Virus record (IMG/VR): IMGVR_UViG_3300029268_000005
Strand: one strand, 5' to 3'
Length of the DNA stretch: 64,000 nucleotides
Origin: an uncultured virus (IMG/VR IMGVR_UViG_3300029268_000005)
Lineage: Duplodnaviria > Heunggongvirae > Uroviricota > Caudoviricetes
Below, piece after piece: positions 44,170 to 56,643 of this stretch. The number at the start of each line of letters is the position of its first letter. Position 1 is the first letter of the stretch. The notes under the pieces are model-generated. The model did no database searches, was not told where the DNA came from, and worked only from the letters and a program-made list of their open reading frames with translations. The position numbers were made by a program, and so were the translations under genes.

Positions 44170-44658
44170 CTATCTACCGTTTGGGGTTGTGGAGTACCTC
44201 AGTCCACCTCCATTTCCAAAGACATTGGTGCTTCCAAACGGATTTGGCACTGTATAAGTGCCGCCGCTGGTCGTCTGACCGCCAAACGAATTTGGCGTTG
44301 TCCGGCCTTGGTACATACCGGAGCTACTATGGAAATTCTGACCCCCAGAGAAGTTGGGAGTGCTGCTGCCCTGGTACATTCCAGAGCTGCCATAGAAGTT
44401 TTGCCCGCCGGAGGAGTTGGGCGTGCTGCGACCTTGGTACATTCCTGAACTTCCGTAGAAGTTCTGGCCCCCGGCCGAGTTGGTTGTTGTCTGGCCCTGG
44501 TACATCCCAGAACTTCCGTAGAAGTTCTGCCCGAAGGACCCACTGTTTCCGAACGCGCTTTGCTGCCCGTTCGCCGTCGGCAGCAGGACCGTGACCGCAG
44601 CCACAACTAATGCAAAGATCGCCAACACACACACCATTCTCAAAACAGAGCCAACCAT
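44170..44658 (-). CDS. Secreted protein with four 21-aa GQNFYGSSGMYQG repeats
   Basis: Signal/TM segment followed by 63-nt tandem repeats; start MVGSVL after AGGAGG. Confidence 0.8.
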   Translation of the reverse strand: MVGSVLRMVCVLAIFALVVAAVTVLLPTANGQQSAFGNSGSFGQNFYGSSGMYQGQTTTNSAGGQNFYGSSGMYQGRSTPNSSGGQNFYGSSGMYQGSSTPNFSGGQNFHSSSGMYQGRTTPNSFGGQTTSGGTYTVPNPFGSTNVFGNGGGLRYSTTPNGR

Positions 44659-44717
44659 GACAAACCCTCCTGAGTTAAAGAAATAGTGGCCCACCAAAAC
44701 TAAGCACTACCTATAGG

Positions 44718-44727
44718 ATTATGCCAC
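44718..44727 (-). promoter_or_regulatory. Extended -10-like promoter GTGGCATAAT
   Basis: TGn+CATAAT; identical 10-mer at 49086-49095; TGGCATAT at 53947-53954. Confidence 0.55.
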
Positions 44728-47795: not shown

Positions 47796-48131
47796 TTACT
47801 CCTGGCTCGGCTGCGGTTCGGGCTCGACGGCCTCGGGCTGTTCTGGCATCGGCGGGAACTGATACGGGCTGTTCGCCTCCCAGAACGCTTGCGTACTGTC
47901 GAACGTCGCGGACAGTGCGGCGGCCACTTCGACCGGCAGCGCAGCCAGGATGTTGGCCTTGCCGTGCGCCTTGCAGCGATCGGAAATCATGGAACACTGA
48001 TAGGCCATCTCGCTCCAGGTCCGTTCGATACCCTGGAGGATGTCGGCCACCGCCGTTGCGATCTCGCTGGTCGTCTGCGCCTGCCGCGCGAACTCGACGA
48101 GCACCGCCGCGGGTTTGGCTTCTTCGGGCAT
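47796..48131 (-). CDS. Hypothetical protein
   Basis: 111 aa, GAGG RBS, tightly packed. Confidence 0.6.
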   Translation of the reverse strand: MPEEAKPAAVLVEFARQAQTTSEIATAVADILQGIERTWSEMAYQCSMISDRCKAHGKANILAALPVEVAAALSATFDSTQAFWEANSPYQFPPMPEQPEAVEPEPQPSQE

Positions 48132-48132
48132 G

Positions 48133-48894
48133 TTAGCACCTCGTATGGGCTAGGCCGTTTTTTCCGGCCAGGTAGTGGTATTGGATGCGGGCCGCGGCCA
48201 GGGCGTAGGTGTAGAGGGCCACGCCGAAGATCCGGCCATCGTAATAGGACGTGGCCCCGGCGCCATTGGCCGCAGCGCCGATTTTCAGCGGACACGTCGC
48301 GTTGTAGATCGCGGCGATCGCACCAGCAGCAACCTTCGCGGGCGTTTGCAATACACCATTCACATAGAGCGCGAGGGTCGTACCGTTCCACGTAAACGCA
48401 ACGTGGCTCCACTCGCCAACCGTCAGGCTGGCGGTGCTGTTGTACCGCTTGACGTTACTCCCGTAGAGCCCATCAGCGGAAATGGTCACTTGAAGTTTCG
48501 GCGGATTCGACGTCTCGACCTGCATCAGCCAGGACCGCTGATTGATGCTTGAATCGTATTGTCCGCAGATCGACCGATTGAAGGTGCTGCCCTGCCTCAC
48601 CCAGGCTTCCACGGTCATCGCCGAGGATACAGCGATCGCGGCGGAATCGGCGATCGAGACGCATTGGCTCGACCCGTTGAACGTCGGTGCGCCGGAAGCA
48701 CTACGGTTGATCGGTCCCGGCATGACGCCCAGAGTTGGCGAACCCACATATGTGCCAGCATTGTTGGTCCCGCGCGCGGCCAGCATCAGATCCGCAGCCG
48801 CTATTCCACTGACCTCGTCGAGCATCCATGCAGCGACCGGCAGACCGCCGTAGGCGGCCTCGCTCAAGATCACGTTGCGGTAGTCTAGATACAT
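48133..48894 (-). CDS. LamG/concanavalin-A-like jelly-roll domain protein
   Basis: PVAAWMLDE, TFNGSSQ, MTVEAWV, WSHVAFTWNGTTLALYVNG, YDGRIFGVALYTYAL. Confidence 0.9.
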   Translation of the reverse strand: MYLDYRNVILSEAAYGGLPVAAWMLDEVSGIAAADLMLAARGTNNAGTYVGSPTLGVMPGPINRSASGAPTFNGSSQCVSIADSAAIAVSSAMTVEAWVRQGSTFNRSICGQYDSSINQRSWLMQVETSNPPKLQVTISADGLYGSNVKRYNSTASLTVGEWSHVAFTWNGTTLALYVNGVLQTPAKVAAGAIAAIYNATCPLKIGAAANGAGATSYYDGRIFGVALYTYALAAARIQYHYLAGKNGLAHTRC

Positions 48895-48951
48895 CTGCTG
48901 CCTCGTTGTGACGCTATCTCAACACATTATAAGCAATAACCCCTGATAGCT

Positions 48952-49080
48952 AAAGAAAAGGCCATGCGACTGCATGGCCCCTTCTACACTTGTGACTCAT
49001 CCATGAGACTAGCCTCCATGCTAAAACAAATGACGTACAGGTAGGACAGGAGCGTATTAGGTTCCGTACGCCTAGTCTCC
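48952..49080 (-). ncRNA. Candidate ~130-nt small RNA with ANGGA hairpins and a terminator (RsmY/Z-like)
   Basis: Own GTGGCATAAT element upstream; TAGC-ATGGAG-GCTA and CTC-ATGGAT-GAG hairpins; GGCCATGC/GCATGGCC stem plus TTTTCTTT terminator; only very short ATG ORFs. Confidence 0.45.
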
Positions 49081-49095
49081 TACCTATTATGCCAC

Positions 49096-49356
49096 CTAAA
49101 CGGTCTGCCGTTCAGGGGCCGTCGTGTGACCGTACTGCTCCAGCAGCGCGGTCAGCGCCTGTCGCGACGCAAGCTGCAGGCTCCGAGTCTCCTCGAAGAC
49201 CTCCGGCTCGCTCATCGCCAGATCGGCCAGCTCGTCGATGTTGATGACAAGCTGAGTGACCTTCACGACGACGTCGTTCGGGACGTCGTCACAAAGTGCC
49301 ACCTGCCAGTGCCTATGATCGGCGTCTGGCATTTCGCAGTAAACGTCGAGTAGCAT
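49096..49356 (-). CDS. Small accessory hypothetical protein
   Basis: Start moved to MLLDVY (AGGAG RBS and ACTAGCC box). Confidence 0.65.
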   Translation of the reverse strand: MLLDVYCEMPDADHRHWQVALCDDVPNDVVVKVTQLVINIDELADLAMSEPEVFEETRSLQLASRQALTALLEQYGHTTAPERQTV

Positions 49357-49394
49357 CGTGTTTTCTCCTATTACGAGGCTAGTTATGCGACACG

Positions 49395-49435
49395 AAAACG
49401 CTGCGTCCCCCATATTCTTTCGGAGGACGCAGCGT
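49395..49435 (-). terminator. Hairpin plus U-tract
   Basis: ACGCTGCGTCC / GGACGCAGCGT stem followed by TTT. Confidence 0.7.
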
Positions 49436-49478
49436 ATTGGAAGAGAATTTCGCCAGAAAAGTACACAATCTGACGAAA

Positions 49479-49949
49479 TTATTCTTTGCCAGCTGCCGAT
49501 TTGGCCCGCTTTGTGATCACGGACCACGCAAAATTGGACAATGCTTTTCCTATGTGCCAGCAAACGAATACCGACACCAGTAAGGCACCTAGAGTGCATA
49601 GCGAATCGTCACGATTCGAGCCCTCGTTACGCACTACGGCTCGCGTACGAAGGCCGTCCTCCTCTGTTAGAGCCTTGACGCTAGAGAAGCGTCCGTTCAG
49701 CTCTTGGTTGTTGCTGCTGACGTCAGTAGACAAGTTGTCTAACTTGGCCGATAGGGTGACCAGTCGAGCATCTAGCCCGCTCATGCGGGCTGCCAAAACG
49801 TTGGCCTCATCGCTGATCTTGCCCATCAGCACGTTCTGACCGGACACGACTTGCCCGGTTGTGCGGCCAATGTAGCTTGCCAGCAGCACAGAGAACAACG
49901 CAACAACAACGAGAATTACGGTGGTGTGAATAGCGGACTTGTCATTCAT
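49479..49949 (-). CDS. TM-coiled coil-TM membrane protein (paralog 1)
   Basis: N- and C-terminal hydrophobic helices with heptads between them. Confidence 0.75.
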   Translation of the reverse strand: MNDKSAIHTTVILVVVALFSVLLASYIGRTTGQVVSGQNVLMGKISDEANVLAARMSGLDARLVTLSAKLDNLSTDVSSNNQELNGRFSSVKALTEEDGLRTRAVVRNEGSNRDDSLCTLGALLVSVFVCWHIGKALSNFAWSVITKRAKSAAGKE

Positions 49950-49985
49950 CTTGAATCCCCTTGGCTAGTTAGGGCTAGAGCAAAC

Positions 49986-50561
49986 TCACGAACGTACGGT
50001 CAGCTTCTTAATAAGCTGCCATATCTTACGCGACAAGAACTTTAGTGCGTGCCAGCTAACTAGCACGCCGATAAGCACGGCAACAGTGAACCATGGAATC
50101 TCTTCCGTGCAGGTAACGACATGGTATCTCAGATTGCTTATCGAATCCTTCTGAGACACCAGTCGGTCCAGAATCCGGTAGTCATGCTCATGAGCCTCCT
50201 TCGAAAGAGTCTCGACCGATTTCTGCAGCTGCATGATCATGTCGACCGGAGGTCGTTGATCACGGAGAAGCTTTTTCATCTCCTCGTGATCCTCGGCGTA
50301 TACGCGCGCCGAGTTCTTCAGAAGGTTCTCTAATGCCGTCAACCGGCCTAGGACACTGTACACCTCGTCCAGCACTTTTTGATTATCGCTGGTAGGTGCT
50401 TTGACCGTGTCCGACGGCGCAAACACAGCCGGTGTGATGCAGTCCACGGCGCGATGTTCGCTCTGCTTGAGCCTTTCAGGCTCACTAGGTGCCAGGGCGT
50501 AAAAGCCCACGGCCACCAGTGCCATGACCAACACGACGAACAAGATCTTTTGAGTCTTCAT
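49986..50561 (-). CDS. TM-coiled coil-TM membrane protein (paralog 2)
   Basis: Start MKTQKIL; C-terminal GVLVSWHALK resembles SVFVCWHIGK in paralog 1. Confidence 0.75.
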   Translation of the reverse strand: MKTQKILFVVLVMALVAVGFYALAPSEPERLKQSEHRAVDCITPAVFAPSDTVKAPTSDNQKVLDEVYSVLGRLTALENLLKNSARVYAEDHEEMKKLLRDQRPPVDMIMQLQKSVETLSKEAHEHDYRILDRLVSQKDSISNLRYHVVTCTEEIPWFTVAVLIGVLVSWHALKFLSRKIWQLIKKLTVRS

Positions 50562-50603
50562 GAAACATTCCTTTTGGCTAGTGACGTGATGACAAAACAT
50601 ACG

Positions 50604-50993
50604 TTACGCTGATTGCTTTGCTGCCAACTCTGCTCGTGCCGCCTTCCAGGCACGAATTATGTTGCGTATGCACAGGTATACGCCCATAGCAGATAGTATC
50701 AACACGGCCGTATTCCATGTCGATTCCTGTACGATCGTGCGTGTATACACATGATCCGATGTCGCCTCCTTAGAGGCATTGGATTGTATCTCGCGCCACT
50801 TGGCGGCTGTGCTGTGTGTATCTGCCTGCAGCGTTGTAAGCTGCATTCGCACCTCGTTGATGACCTTGTCTCGCTGACGTTCAGCGGACATGATCGAATT
50901 CAGTGTACTGGTGTTCGACGACACCAACAGCAGTGTACACAAACTCATGGAGACAGTTGCCGTCATGCAGACGGACATGTATTTGCTAATCAT
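50604..50993 (-). CDS. TM-coiled coil-TM membrane protein (paralog 3)
   Basis: Same topology; YTRTIVQE resembles RTRAVVRNE in paralog 1. Confidence 0.7.
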   Translation of the reverse strand: MISKYMSVCMTATVSMSLCTLLLVSSNTSTLNSIMSAERQRDKVINEVRMQLTTLQADTHSTAAKWREIQSNASKEATSDHVYTRTIVQESTWNTAVLILSAMGVYLCIRNIIRAWKAARAELAAKQSA

Positions 50994-51151
50994 GACATCT
51001 CCTAAGGCTAGTTAGGTGGTGAAAAACTACTGGCTGAGGGACAGCAGGGCCTGCGCCCCGCAGTAAACCGTCCCGGCCAGAATCAGAAGCTTGACCACCG
51101 ACATGGCGATCACAGACACCACGCTATCTACGTGAGCTGACTTACGCATGT

Positions 51152-52141
51152 TTACTCCTTAAAGAGGGCGGGTAGTAACTGAACGGCTAGCTCCCGGCTG
51201 AGATGCAGCCGGAAGGGTTCGTTGCTGATGATCCCATGTTGAGGGCCGCGCCCAGGGATCTCAGCGACAGTTTCACGCAGGTCGATACCGTCGTGTAGGG
51301 CGGTGAATATGACCTGCTTGGTAGACAGTCGGGATGCAATTGCACCCTTTGTGCTGATGACGACCAGCACATCTGCATTCAGGTCGACAGCCGTGGCCTG
51401 TAGAATGTGGCTGTCGAACTTGTCGCTGACGTTGGATACGTCCAGCACGGCCCATCGGCGGTCGTACACCGTCGAGATGCGCATGCTGTCCAACACGTCT
51501 AACGTGTCCCGCACCACAACGTCGTGGTTCAGCGCCATGACATTCAGACGCTTCTCAGCTTCGCGGCCAACCAACATGTCCACAAACAGCTGGTAGGCTT
51601 CCTGATGGCCGCGCGCATCTTCGCGCTGCAATACGGCCGTCGACCTAACGAATAGCTGGCCGATATCTGAGAAGAGATGCAGCTTGGCCGCATAAGACGG
51701 CCCGTCCAGCCGCATCGCATCCTCAACCAAATCGACGTAGGTGAGGCCTACGGCGCGCAGTGCTGCAAACAGTCCATCGCCGTCGGCGTGAGCGATGATC
51801 ACATCTTTGTCGCCGATGCAGCCGATATCGATCAGCTGGGCACAGGCTAGAGCGTTCTTACGGGTGACACACAACGCGTCTACTAACGGCCGTGCCCGTA
51901 TTAGCTCGTATACGTCATCGTACAACTCGCTGCCGGTATCTGGTTTGTGATGGTCACGTACCATCACCTTGTGCTTCATCGCTAGGTCTGAAATCAGATC
52001 ATGGCACACCACTGGCGACAGATCGGCTATCAGAACCTTGGAGGCACCCTGGCAGCATCGGATCAGTACCGACGATATCTGTTCGATTTCAGACGGCTGG
52101 ACGAACATCGCCAGCGTCTTACGAAGCATTAACGAAAACAT
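51152..52141 (-). CDS. DHH-like phosphoesterase with permuted motif order
   Basis: VLIADL, VRDHH, then IIAHADGDG. Confidence 0.55.
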   Translation of the reverse strand: MFSLMLRKTLAMFVQPSEIEQISSVLIRCCQGASKVLIADLSPVVCHDLISDLAMKHKVMVRDHHKPDTGSELYDDVYELIRARPLVDALCVTRKNALACAQLIDIGCIGDKDVIIAHADGDGLFAALRAVGLTYVDLVEDAMRLDGPSYAAKLHLFSDIGQLFVRSTAVLQREDARGHQEAYQLFVDMLVGREAEKRLNVMALNHDVVVRDTLDVLDSMRISTVYDRRWAVLDVSNVSDKFDSHILQATAVDLNADVLVVISTKGAIASRLSTKQVIFTALHDGIDLRETVAEIPGRGPQHGIISNEPFRLHLSRELAVQLLPALFKE

Positions 52142-52172
52142 GAAAAACTCCTAGGCTAGTGTTGCGATACAT

Positions 52173-52213
52173 AAAAAAGAAAGACCGACCGGCGTTTGCC
52201 AAGTCGGTCTTTC
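52173..52213 (-). terminator. Intrinsic terminator
   Basis: GAAAGACCGAC / GTCGGTCTTTC stem followed by TTTTTT. Confidence 0.8.
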
Positions 52214-52234
52214 CGTGGCGACCTCTGAGTCGGC

Positions 52235-53068
52235 CTACAAGTCGGAATACTTATAGTCGGCTAAGAACGCCAACGCCGCCTCGCGGCGTTGCGTAGTCGG
52301 TTCGTACAGGAACCGGTGCGCCGGACTATCCGACGAAGTATTATGGTTCGACCAGAACGTCCTCAGGTCGAATCCAGACTCGGCCATAATGGCTATGTAG
52401 TCGTCTAGCCACAAGCCTGCACGCCAGCAGGCTAGCGCATGTGACGATACGCCGTCGCCGGTGTAAATGGCCGGCATCATGATGCCTCCATCTTGCTGAC
52501 GAATAGCCAGCAAAGGGAAGGCCGAAAACGACGTCATGGCCGTCAGAAGAATCTGACAGAGCCCGGCTGCTGGCAATGTTGTAGACGCCGGCAGCTGCGC
52601 TCCAATGGCCCACAGATCGTTCTGAAGACGGGCCATTGGGTTGTCCTCGAACTTGACCTCGTCGGTTTCCGGGTCAAGTAGCATGGCATGGCCGTCCGTG
52701 ACCACCGCATGTACCTGATTGCCAATCAGGCACACCTGTCGCTCTTCCGCCGTCATGGCAGCCAGCTTGGCCATCAGCTGCTCATGATCATCGAGCCTGT
52801 CATGCGACGGCACGGACCCCGTAAGGTCCGTCAGCGGAATGTCCAGACAGGACCAGTTGTTCTGATCCATTGTACGGACAACGTCCAGTGAACGACTGCG
52901 CATGACAGCCCTGGACAAAGCTGTCAGCGCTTTTGGCAGCATGGTCCTTGGCGCTTGCTGCTGGCTTCTTTCCAAGCCAACGAGCTTCTCCACCAGCACC
53001 GGCATATTGACGATGCTGATGTTCCAGGGCCACCCAAACGGGCGTTCCTTCGCAAGCTTCATACTCAT
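52235..53068 (-). CDS. Accessory hypothetical protein (start may be ATG 53062)
   Basis: 277-aa ORF; AAAGGA RBS and ACTAGCC box. Confidence 0.7.
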   Translation of the reverse strand: MSMKLAKERPFGWPWNISIVNMPVLVEKLVGLERSQQQAPRTMLPKALTALSRAVMRSRSLDVVRTMDQNNWSCLDIPLTDLTGSVPSHDRLDDHEQLMAKLAAMTAEERQVCLIGNQVHAVVTDGHAMLLDPETDEVKFEDNPMARLQNDLWAIGAQLPASTTLPAAGLCQILLTAMTSFSAFPLLAIRQQDGGIMMPAIYTGDGVSSHALACWRAGLWLDDYIAIMAESGFDLRTFWSNHNTSSDSPAHRFLYEPTTQRREAALAFLADYKYSDL

Positions 53069-53399
53069 TCCTTTACACTAGTGAGGGCTAGTAAAAATGG
53101 CCTCCGGACGGATCACTAGCCTAATCCGCCGGAGGCCCCACACCACAAAACTCAATAATAGCGCCCTGTTCTGGCTCCTATGGCCAGCACTCAGGGTCTG
53201 TTACCACGGAGTAAAACTGCAAGTTAAGAACGAAGCTAACACACTGGATACCTGTAGGGCAGGCCGGTCAACCGCAAGCGGTCCACATTTATCGGCGTTC
53301 GTTGCCCTAACAGGCTCCAGTGCCAGCGGCAGGAGCCACCGCCGTTGCGACCCCTGTGTAACTTTTTTGCCGAATTACACAGAGGTAAGCGCTCCTGAA

Positions 53400-53696
53400 C
53401 TACACTCCGTCGTTCCACCAGGCCTGCTGGCTCGGTAGCCACGTGGCCTCCTCGCGCCACGTCCGTCCACCGTTGACGTTATCACCGCCCCTGGCCACAA
53501 AGTGCGCCGACTTTGACGGGTCGATCACGCGAACAAGGTCCGGACCCGAAACGAATCCGTTGTCGCGGACTCCTTCGGTGACGCAGTTGATGCAGCAGAA
53601 CACTTGACCCCAGCAGGCACCGCTGCCGAAGTAGGAGCGGCCGTAGATGTGCCCTAACTCCCGCGTCAGGACTACCTCTTGTACGTTCGTTGACAT
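53400..53696 (-). CDS. Accessory hypothetical protein
   Basis: Start moved to MSTNVQ (AAAGGA RBS and ACTAGCC box). Confidence 0.65.
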   Translation of the reverse strand: MSTNVQEVVLTRELGHIYGRSYFGSGACWGQVFCCINCVTEGVRDNGFVSGPDLVRVIDPSKSAHFVARGGDNVNGGRTWREEATWLPSQQAWWNDGV

Positions 53697-53965
53697 CGCA
53701 AAATTCCTTTGGCTAGTGACTATAAACACAAAACAGACCGAAAGGTCTGATAATTGGCGCCTGCCGCAAGTAGGGAGACCTACGGCAGGTTCGTTGCACA
53801 GGTACCGTAGCAGGCCTGGAGTTATCCAAGCCTCCACAGCGTAAAAGCAACGAAGGACTGCAATGCCGGACTGCAGTCATAAGATGGCAGCGACCTCAGA
53901 ACTATGTCCGGTCGCCGCGTATTAAGGCGGTACTAAGCTAAAGTCGATATGCCAAGGAGATTGGA

Positions 53966-53991
53966 AGATGTAATTAGCGCTAATTACATCT
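53966..53991. promoter_or_regulatory. Palindrome copy 4 (perfect 26 bp)
   Basis: AGATGTAATTAGCGCTAATTACATCT, overlapping the expected -35 position of the TGGCATAT element. Confidence 0.9.
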
Positions 53992-54068
53992 CTGATCCGT
54001 GGCAGCGACGATAGCTAGTTAGCGCCTCCAATATAGTATGACGCGTTTTGGGCCTTTATTTACCAATG

Positions 54069-54106
54069 AAAAAAGCCGGCAGGTGCCTCATGCACCCACC
54101 GGCTTT
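54069..54106 (-). terminator. Intrinsic terminator ending the head operon
   Basis: AAAGCCGG..CCGGCTTT stem followed by a U-tract on the minus strand. Confidence 0.8.
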
Positions 54107-54124
54107 GCCAACCTTCCGTGGTTG

Positions 54125-54478
54125 TCAGACGCGGTATTCCATCTCCGAATCGGTCAGGCTCGTAAGCCAGCACGGTGCGGCGACAGCCAGCGTGTTGTTA
54201 TTCAGCACGAGCATCTGGGACTGATCCAGAGTAGCATCGTACAGAATAGGAGCAGGAGTCGACACAAGCTCAAGCCACCCAGCTTCGAGGGCCTCGAAGA
54301 ACTTCTGCACGCCACGGGCGCCGAAGATCCGACCAATGGTATCGACGACATGGCCGCTAATCGAGACTTCCTCGTTGTTGTCCAGCTCAGCCCCGTGGGG
54401 CGGCACAATGCTAATCTTGCGCTTCGAGCCGGCAACATTGCGAATGGTGGACACCAAACAGCTGATATCAACAGCCAT
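54125..54478 (-). CDS. Putative head-associated structural protein
   Basis: 117 aa, CACGGAGG RBS, follows the capsid genes. Confidence 0.6.
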   Translation of the reverse strand: MAVDISCLVSTIRNVAGSKRKISIVPPHGAELDNNEEVSISGHVVDTIGRIFGARGVQKFFEALEAGWLELVSTPAPILYDATLDQSQMLVLNNNTLAVAAPCWLTSLTDSEMEYRV

Positions 54479-54543
54479 GGTTTTCCTCCGTGATCATCCA
54501 CACTTGCTAACAGCCTCGCGGCCGTTCGAAAAAGCTGGCAATG

Positions 54544-56007: not shown

Positions 56008-56052
56008 ATGCACCTCCGTGTTAGCTAAGTTTCAGTGGTGTCCGTACCAATA

Positions 56053-56643
56053 TCAGCTTTCGAGACCGCTGACGCTAGTCGTCAGCTTCGGCAGCCAGAC
56101 AGGCCAGAAGGCCAGGACATTGCGACGGAAAGTGTTCGCACGAACGGCGCGGCTGACCACACCGCAAATCGGCTTCTCGTAAGCAGCGGCCCTGGTAATA
56201 CGGCCACCAGTAGCGGCATCCGTGTTGCTAGCAACGGCCGTGAGGCAGTCACCAGGAGCATAGGTGTCGCCAAGAGACGACTCGGGTTCGAACTCCGTGG
56301 TCTCCAGCTCCATGGCCGCAGCGGCGGCAAAGCCACCGATGTTGCCAGAGGGCGTGGCCGCCACGTAGACGTCGGCCTCGGTGGCCGGATCGCCGCCACC
56401 GACGGTGACGTCGTTGTCGGTCGAGGTCTGGAAGAGGAAGATCGCCATGTGACCAGCCTGCACAACGTCAGGCAGCCCCATCTCGTAGTCCCCGTCCGCA
56501 TTCAAGTGAGCCACGCGACCGCCCCACACTTGGTCGATGGTCACAACAGACGCAAGCTTCGCCACGAAGTCCACCGCTTGCTGGCTCGGCCAGCCCTTCA
56601 GCGGGTTCAGACCGTGGACAGTCATTTGGGTAGGAGTCTTCAT
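56053..56643 (-). CDS. Putative head decoration/cement protein
   Basis: Directly upstream of the MCP; ELETTEF..YAPGDCLTA..ICGVVS. Confidence 0.65.
   Translation of the reverse strand: MKTPTQMTVHGLNPLKGWPSQQAVDFVAKLASVVTIDQVWGGRVAHLNADGDYEMGLPDVVQAGHMAIFLFQTSTDNDVTVGGGDPATEADVYVAATPSGNIGGFAAAAAMELETTEFEPESSLGDTYAPGDCLTAVASNTDAATGGRITRAAAYEKPICGVVSRAVRANTFRRNVLAFWPVWLPKLTTSVSGLES

Follow-up and report, generated by a model that had tools for sequence, protein, structure and literature searches.

Does a gene-free stretch of 144 nt in an uncultured phage encode a small RNA that draws CsrA away from the messages of that phage? The window, meaning the whole 64,000-nt stretch of DNA analysed here, makes up the first 64 kb of a linear virus record that is 133,466 nt long and about 65% complete; nearly all genes of the record lie on the - strand. 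Csr/Rsm decoy RNAs are mainly known from Gammaproteobacteria. Judged by its sequence, the stretch is a real, non-random CsrA-site element that lies outside the known Csr/Rsm families. It may function as a minimal CsrA decoy RNA, a lineage-specific add-on and not a core switch, which is a reading that we hold tentatively and at just under an even chance. The solid result is a family-wide set of predicted target sites; the decoy role of the element is a candidate.

The element occupies 48952-49095 on the - strand, between a stop codon at 49096 and a start codon at 48894, and is the closing unit of a 5-kb cassette of orphan genes. This cassette lies between a 117-aa gene and a LamG-domain gene and is found in none of 79 other loci. 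Its proteins have no Pfam match and no useful PHROG match. The 86-aa protein encoded by the last cassette gene was searched for in metagenomes (59 of 64 parts), where only the identical copy L344 is among the matches listed, and the 329-aa cassette protein is an orphan. The 275-aa cassette protein has 12 distant relatives, none with a Pfam family above cut-off, and no usable Atlas match. The parts of the locus are as follows.

49096..49356, - strand: orphan ORF of 86 aa, the final cassette gene, with a stop codon that directly adjoins the element on the 5' side
49086..49095, - strand: extended -10-like promoter element GTGGCATAAT (TG-n-CATAAT), recognised by sequence, a putative promoter
49039..49085, - strand: long hairpin found by folding, outer stem AGGUAGGA/UCCUACCU, with GGA at 49065-49063 in a 10-nt loop
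49010..49023, - strand: CsrA-type hairpin 2, UAGC-AUGGAG-GCUA, four Watson-Crick pairs, loop holding an SD-like GGAGG
49008..49016, - strand: complement of the ACTAGCC box, GAGGCTAGT (RNA GAGGCUAGU), overlapping the 3' arm of hairpin 2
48996..49007, - strand: CsrA-type hairpin 3, CUC-AUGGAU-GAG, 3-bp stem, marginal in prediction
49019-48984, - strand: 11-codon ORF
48984..49004, - strand: 6-codon micro-ORF MDESQV, sharing the frame of the 11-codon ORF that contains it, GGAGG 8 nt upstream
48952..48983, - strand: predicted intrinsic-terminator-like hairpin, RNA GGCCAUGC-AGUC-GCAUGGCC (extendable), then UUUUCUUU
48926..48954, - strand: putative promoter-like site TTTAGC-17 nt-TATAAT, overlapping the U-tract of the element, ahead of the LamG-domain gene
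48894-48133, - strand: LamG-domain gene, 253 aa, downstream of the element

Every sequence part that an earlier, sequence-only reading had named within the element is found in its place on the - strand, as is the 11-codon ATG-initiated ORF, the other sense-strand frame being the 6-codon one. The promoter element GTGGCATAAT is without a good -35, and its predicted start is about 49080-49078. The pattern TGnYAYAAT occurs three times on the - strand of the genome, twice in non-coding DNA (in the element and at 44726, before a 162-aa gene), where the non-coding fraction of the genome is 0.14 and a control pattern is non-coding in 1 of 10 cases. The gene behind this second GTGGCATAAT copy (window 44170-44727, - strand) encodes a secreted-looking protein with 21-residue repeats (63-nt DNA repeats). 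The terminator core in DNA is GGCCATGC-AGTC-GCATGGCC at 48979-48960, with the tail TTTTCTTT at 48959-48952; a structural scan finds it at -16.7 kcal/mol, and it is absent from the list of the consensus terminator scan. Terminator tails with a common TTTAGCTATC are seen at window 48959 and 43751 and genome 90115, with a TTTACCTATC version at L008:18545, and each of 11 relatives has one to four copies of the pattern.

The structure of the element exceeds what chance provides. The region folds with z = -3.67, as well as which none of 200 shuffles folds, and three ANGGA are reached in 50 of 20,000 dinucleotide shuffles. The two CANGGANG hexaloop hairpins together appear in 0 of 20,000, and the element is the only unit of paired GGA hairpins plus terminator found in the 133-kb genome. 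A scan of both strands, which took in this genome, 11 relatives and 66 kb from a longer assembly of the phage, likewise returns only the element as a paired-GGA unit followed by a terminator. That it is ordinary structured intergenic DNA with a terminator, its GGA hairpins without function, is highly improbable: the lack of conservation and of an Rfam match (below) would agree with this, as would the hairpin-rich cassette (two further spacers have z = -5.0 and -8.6), but the shuffles and the uniqueness of the unit in the genome speak against it, and the same motif is under selection at virion genes of the phage family.

How well these hairpins form depends on where the RNA begins. The long hairpin starts right after the -10 hexamer, so that a transcript with the usual start at 49080-49078 loses most of the 5' arm, and the 5' part of the RNA refolds; the hairpin forms only when the RNA starts at or upstream of about 49083. 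Over nine 5' ends tried, the closing-pair probability is 0.17-0.57 for hairpin 2 and 0.02-0.30 for hairpin 3. Forcing both costs 0.1 kcal/mol with a start at 49085 and 2.3 kcal/mol with a start at 49079, amounts that protein binding could supply for both hexaloops. With a long 5' end, two of the GGA sites are mostly open and the third is mostly paired. The two tandem ANGGAN hexaloop hairpins of the sequence-only reading are present and beyond chance, but hairpin 3 is only marginally stable. The long hairpin that was said to carry ACGGA beside its loop also exists, but the GGA sits inside a 10-nt loop that is no hexaloop, and the structure is lost with the usual start.

If the element is a decoy, its resemblance to known ones is partial. 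Like RsmX/RsmY/RsmZ and CsrB/CsrC, it has short ANGGA hairpins followed by an intrinsic terminator, is non-coding and lies in a CsrA-encoding genome (PMC7366521, PMC1488887). Its 144 nt contain one AGGA, no ARGGA, three ANGGA and four GGA, whereas CsrB has 16 motifs and V. fischeri CsrB1/2 have 21 (PMC1488887). Of the five features by which PMC1488887 recognises Csr/Rsm sRNAs, the intergenic location and the predicted Rho-independent terminator are found, and two are missing, namely motif density and an upstream activator site; a GacA-type palindrome with up to 4 mismatches (a general form of the motif, not the weight matrix of PMC1488887) was not found in 49096-49400. For the fifth, repeated GGA in loops or unpaired stretches, the picture is the mixed one given above, with two sites mostly open on the long RNA and one mostly paired. 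Rfam covariance models give no match at gathering score in the window, and at E up to 10 between 48800 and 54200 there are eight weak matches, none on the element. The element differs from the decoys of Gammaproteobacteria in having no Rfam match and no GacA-type site found, and also in being phage-borne, lineage-specific and likely aimed at phage CsrA and virion genes. As to GGA spacing, the distances within the element are 12, 45 and 60 nt, the 12 nt separating the GGA of hairpin 3 from that of hairpin 2. CsrA bridges sites 10-63 nt apart with an optimum above 18 nt, below which the spacing of 12 falls, while SELEX data describe short stems and hexaloops that agree with the hairpins of the element (PMC7652899).

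Conservation was sought in several ways. With nhmmer across 352 loci (4.3 Mb), the only homologues of the element are copies of the same phage, which are identical. A blastn search of 47800-54500 against annotated phages gives no element homologue, and exact-pattern scans of viral contigs match only the same phage. A degenerate pattern returns 33 loci: this phage accounts for one, and each of the other 32, which were rejected, falls within an open frame (73-260 codons) and shows no nhmmer similarity. The RNA does not belong to the RsmY/RsmZ/CsrB group: Rfam has no match for it, ARGGA is absent, ANGGA occurs just three times, and relatives carry no homologue. A search for a family-wide sponge, by patterns in 50 records and structural scans of 11 relatives, yields one other candidate, in the genome G005; these scans covered 160 of 183 kb of G004 and the first 200 kb of G002, G003, G006, G008, G009 and G019. 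In a relaxed scan of the 11 relatives there is 1 sponge-like unit, and the four control motifs give 0, 0, 0 and 2; as gene leaders, paired GGA hairpins are found 24 times and the controls 2, 0, 1 and 1 times. Since sponge-like units are no commoner in relatives than controls, a decoy would be a lineage-specific addition. Within about 270 nt, the unit in G005 (L157:1060-1365) combines a promoter-like TTGACA-17-TAACTT with four ANGGA and a hairpin resembling a terminator. It contains the hairpins GGCC-AGGGAU-GGCC and GAC-AAGGAU-GUC, has z = -3.84 over 1092-1365, is unrelated in sequence to the element and is overlapped by a 92-codon ORF; its genome has two csrA matches.

The protein that such a decoy would bind is encoded by the phage. 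The csrA gene (59 aa, genome 90348-90169; match C1:90205-90348, E 7.7e-23) yields a product whose residues 1-48 align gap-free with RsmE/CsrA. It retains L4 and R44, which are the residues highlighted in PMC7652899 (Fig. 1 legend), and has Gly at 7 and Leu at 43. Among 50 related records, csrA is present in 32, and 21 of the 25 that are at least 90% complete have it. The same genomes thus hold a CsrA protein together with predicted GGA-site targets, recognised by sequence and covariation. A CsrA-type site on the capsid gene occurs without a csrA match in L013/G009 and L045/G030, while L038 and L039 have csrA and no capsid site; because G009 and G030 keep the site without a match and L038 and L039 show the reverse, host CsrA may also act. 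In G019, three tandem CANGGANG sites lie directly 5' of csrA (L090:1462-1500), which suggests autoregulation.

The targets themselves are found on virion genes. The 313-aa protein at 56007-55066 (- strand) is a weak match to the major head protein phrog_2522 (E 0.00098), and 1,488 of 1,999 candidates are relatives of it, the top ones sharing 60-67% identity; 80 viral loci were retained out of 110 confirmed. Many of the relatives' records are about 200 kb. Genome bins of capsid relatives bear mixed labels (Planctomycetota, Gemmataceae, Nannocystaceae, Nanopelagicales, Alphaproteobacteria), and one relative carries a name from a Planctomycetota bin. The leader concerned in this phage is the following.

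56008..56032, - strand: leader of the major capsid gene with a CACGGAGG SD, a putative CsrA target

The same CACGGAGG SD precedes the genes starting at 56643, 54478, 42062, 39204 and 15941. When the genes of the phage are divided at 89 kb, those below this position forming a structural block (a label set by the analyst that does not reflect measured timing), 14 of 69 genes of that block have CANGGANG no more than 25 nt from the start, against 0 of 67 in the other block (p = 6e-5). Strength of the SD alone is insufficient to explain this bias, because among GGAGG-type SDs the motif is found at 9 of 16 in the structural block and at 0 of 8 in the other. Among the 11 relatives, CANGGANG is present at the capsid gene in 11 of 11, at the 196-aa gene before it in 9 of 11, at a 933-aa sheath-like gene in 8 of 10 and at the 163-aa gene after that in 5 of 10; 'sheath' and 'tube' are named from size and position, with no family match for either. 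Overall, 75 of 351 structural genes in these relatives carry CANGGANG against 0 of 19 non-structural ones (p = 0.018), and a stricter motif gives p = 0.054 in the same comparison, which has only 19 non-structural comparators.

At the capsid gene the sites also show signs of selection on structure. Capsid leaders have CANGGANG at 62 of 78 loci with an assignable start, and ANGGAG lies near the capsid start at 67 of 80 loci, which reduce to 50 distinct sites. Thirty of these have stems of at least 3 bp that place ANGGAG in a hexaloop. Summed stem length is 154, compared with 95 after swapping of arms, and 0 of 10,000 swaps reach 154 (kinship being ignored); the stems covary, with A-U, U-A and C-G exchanges across the family. 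The AUGGAG loop of hairpin 2 is also the loop in 14 of the 50 distinct capsid leaders. A CsrA regulon on the virion genes of this phage family, with predicted targets, is well supported, and the SD hairpins on capsid and other virion genes probably weigh more as a finding than the element does. A conserved gene of about 275 aa, whose product begins with MARKP, has a CsrA-type site on its SD in L117, L125, L130, L133, L135, L136 and L143 and a second such site just 3' of its start codon; by eye, its product looks like a cell-wall hydrolase.

Because the phage has csrA, CsrA-consensus SD sites on virion genes and covarying hairpins, a decoy would be expected to de-repress structural genes. CsrA encoded in the non-structural block would bind the SD hairpins of virion messages and hold back translation of capsid, sheath and tube. 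Transcription of the element would begin at the extended -10 promoter, or the element would form the 3' end of the mRNA of the accessory cassette, or both would occur, and the resulting small RNA would serve as a decoy for the CsrA of the phage or of its host. This RNA would offer two or three sites that one CsrA dimer could bridge, and by lowering free CsrA it would advance the synthesis of virion proteins. The proposal of a CsrA sponge gains from the phage csrA, the virion SD sites and the covariation across the family, but the RNA belongs to no known family and has no homologue. Counting against a decoy, its three ANGGA face an abundant capsid mRNA that would itself titrate CsrA. It is possible, if somewhat unlikely, that all this amounts to a complete phage-owned Csr circuit that times virion assembly, with CsrA repressing capsid, sheath and tube and the small RNA titrating CsrA; in the boldest form, CsrA-free RNA would open hairpin 2 and pair with seven accessory leaders.

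The position of the element allows it to be read as part of a longer message. Because the stop codon of the 86-aa gene directly precedes it, the element could be the 3' UTR of that gene or of the cassette, where CsrA bound near the terminator would act in cis on mRNA stability or termination, a distinctly unlikely reading. It agrees with the long hairpin being complete only on transcripts that start upstream of about 49083, and of the 14 terminators of the genome, 5 have a CANGGA no more than 100 nt away (background 0.127). One of these is on the - strand at genome G000:C1:120610-120665, where a GCG-AUGGAA-CGC hairpin accompanies a terminator with an ACGGAU loop. Against it, the extended -10, a rare motif found twice in non-coding DNA, lies exactly at the 5' edge of the element, and across the family CANGGA near terminators shows no enrichment (30 of 209); such sites in a 3' UTR would titrate CsrA anyway. 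ACGGAA sites also precede the terminators at window 54119 and about 52215.

Alternatively, the two hairpins may gate translation. Hairpin 2 would cover the SD and hairpin 3 the AUG of MDESQV, forming a CsrA-gated start that is either the remnant of a deleted gene or an attenuation device; in the latter form, a ribosome would stop at the 5' arm of the terminator when CsrA is scarce and permit read-through into the downstream virion genes. This is unlikely, although several points favour it. A GGAGG lies 8 nt before the ATG at 49004, the stop codon (48986-48984) adjoins the 5' arm of the terminator, and paired GGA hairpins in relatives are nearly always gene leaders (24 against 1 terminator unit). 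Pairs of SD site and start site also precede the conserved gene of about 275 aa in relatives, and a short upstream ORF under CsrA control is known from iraD (PMC7652899 section 6). The spacing from SD to AUG is, however, not independent evidence, because it arises automatically from any AUGGAG..AUGGAU pair 15 nt apart, and the MDESQV peptide has no conserved copies in other phages. Attenuation in particular meets the difficulties that only about 60 nt separate the SD from the U-tract, with no evident pause site, and that the LamG-domain gene downstream has its own promoter-like site.

The sequence-only reading had also proposed that the RNA could silence early accessory genes by pairing with a box beside their SDs. 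The boxes exist as described.

49377..53717, - strand: seven ACTAGCC boxes (53717, 53092, 52160, 51012, 50582, 49969, 49383), each just 5' of the SD of an accessory gene

The complement is present in the element, but for four of the genes it is only 7 nt long; for two it reaches 8 nt and for one 9 nt. Pairing of GAGGCUAGU with ACUAGCC beside the seven SDs, which would block translation in competition with CsrA on hairpin 2, is very unlikely. A 7-mer complement arises by chance only about 1-2% of the time (GGCTAGT is in 437 of 20,000 shuffles and in 1.1% of 135-nt genome windows), and a second copy of the complement lies in the 6-nt loop (53121-53116) of the hairpin at 53140-53098. Other sRNAs that base-pair, McaS and GadY, also bind CsrA (PMC7652899). 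With a 5' end at 49085, the box leaders co-fold with the RNA at -7.7 to -10.8 kcal/mol against a median of -5.9 (p = 0.002), a test that is partly circular because the leaders were chosen for carrying the complement. This effect is gone with a 5' end at 49079 (p = 0.56), and a simple duplex test gives p = 0.135. Out of 144 leaders, those with a box occupy only ranks 9-44 in co-folding when the RNA starts at 49085, and ranks 18-114 when it starts at 49079. The 7-9 nt seed, moreover, sits in the stem of hairpin 2, and since it overlaps the 3' arm, pairing and CsrA binding would be mutually exclusive.

The box itself points elsewhere. It is bipartite: in all seven cases a TTT or T-run precedes it at the same distance of about 11 nt (background 0.084, 36 of 429 windows), and the RNA of the element has no complement to this T-run, which counts against antisense pairing. 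For the 275-aa cassette gene, the T-run spacing fits its second copy, ACTAGTG. Four boxes lie directly 3' of terminator-like hairpins whose tail is the T-run. Reverse copies of ACTAGCC were considered as antisense promoters and ruled out, as neither has a T-run. Because it is bipartite, with a fixed T-run that reverse copies lack, the box fits a private, DNA-level signal of promoter type better than an sRNA target. No array of ACTAGCC boxes is found in relatives, where single scattered matches occur in 5 of 49 other records, the same as for a control. The name 'early' for the accessory genes is unsupported because the cassette sits inside the virion-gene block; its genes come after a palindrome of which copies stand ahead of several transcription units. 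The early-to-late switch put forward in the sequence-only reading is therefore speculative. In T4-type phages, PeSL promoter/stem-loop cassettes place repeated terminator and signal units between the orphan genes of a variable region (PMC2839356), which is like the ACTAGCC box and not the GGA hairpins; unlike PeSL, the box does not match the sigma-70 consensus and is a putative promoter.

Returning to the tentative decoy, several known systems share parts of its design. The E. coli sRNAs McaS and GadY, with at least two GGA motifs (PMC7652899), resemble the element in having few GGA sites and a possible short seed. No sequence relation to them is seen, and the seed of the element overlaps a CsrA hairpin, its pairing being poorly supported. 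The leaders of glgC, cstA and B. subtilis hag have two CsrA sites, one of them on the SD (PMC7652899 section 6), and this two-site layout is that of the element and of the capsid, sheath and other leaders of the family; in the element, unlike CsrA-repressed leaders, the frame behind the sites has only 6 codons and runs into the terminator. Alleles of csrA have been recorded on 30 of 2517 phage genomes, with their role left open, in a survey of phage and plasmid csrA whose available sections name no targets or antagonists (PMC7366521); here, conserved virion sites occur in the same genomes. Non-coding RNAs of phages are known, for example from phiKZ, none of them linked to RsmA in the available sections of PMC8545117. 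In the open full-text literature, which was the scope of the search (subscription literature lying outside it), no phage-encoded CsrA decoy RNA and no CsrA control of virion genes was found. If the decoy is real, the synthesis of late proteins in phages would be set by a timer that works after transcription and has an RNA antagonist of its own, and this would be outside Gammaproteobacteria. This family of phages of about 200 kb, with a phage CsrA, conserved SD hairpins and candidate decoys in two lineages, offers a test case.

Other features of the genome deserve mention. Within the cassette, the spacer at 53055-53410 (- strand, z = -4.96) has a terminator-like hairpin at its end; the loop of this hairpin, GGCUAG, is the complement of part of the ACTAGCC box that directly follows. 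At the head of the cassette (53690-54075, - strand) stands a non-coding chain of hairpins with z = -8.64, one loop of which, UCUCC, is complementary to GGAGA. The palindrome AATTAGCGCTAATT has nine copies in the record (window 14201, 25334, 39233, 53972 and 63509; genome 86680, 100523, 109497 and 124064) and five further copies in the first 66 kb of G001, with none in the scanned parts of the 11 relatives. It often lies right before a gene or behind a terminator, and is a candidate operator or phage promoter. Beyond the window, a tRNA-like sequence lies on the - strand at about 123640-123715 of the genome (G000:C1).
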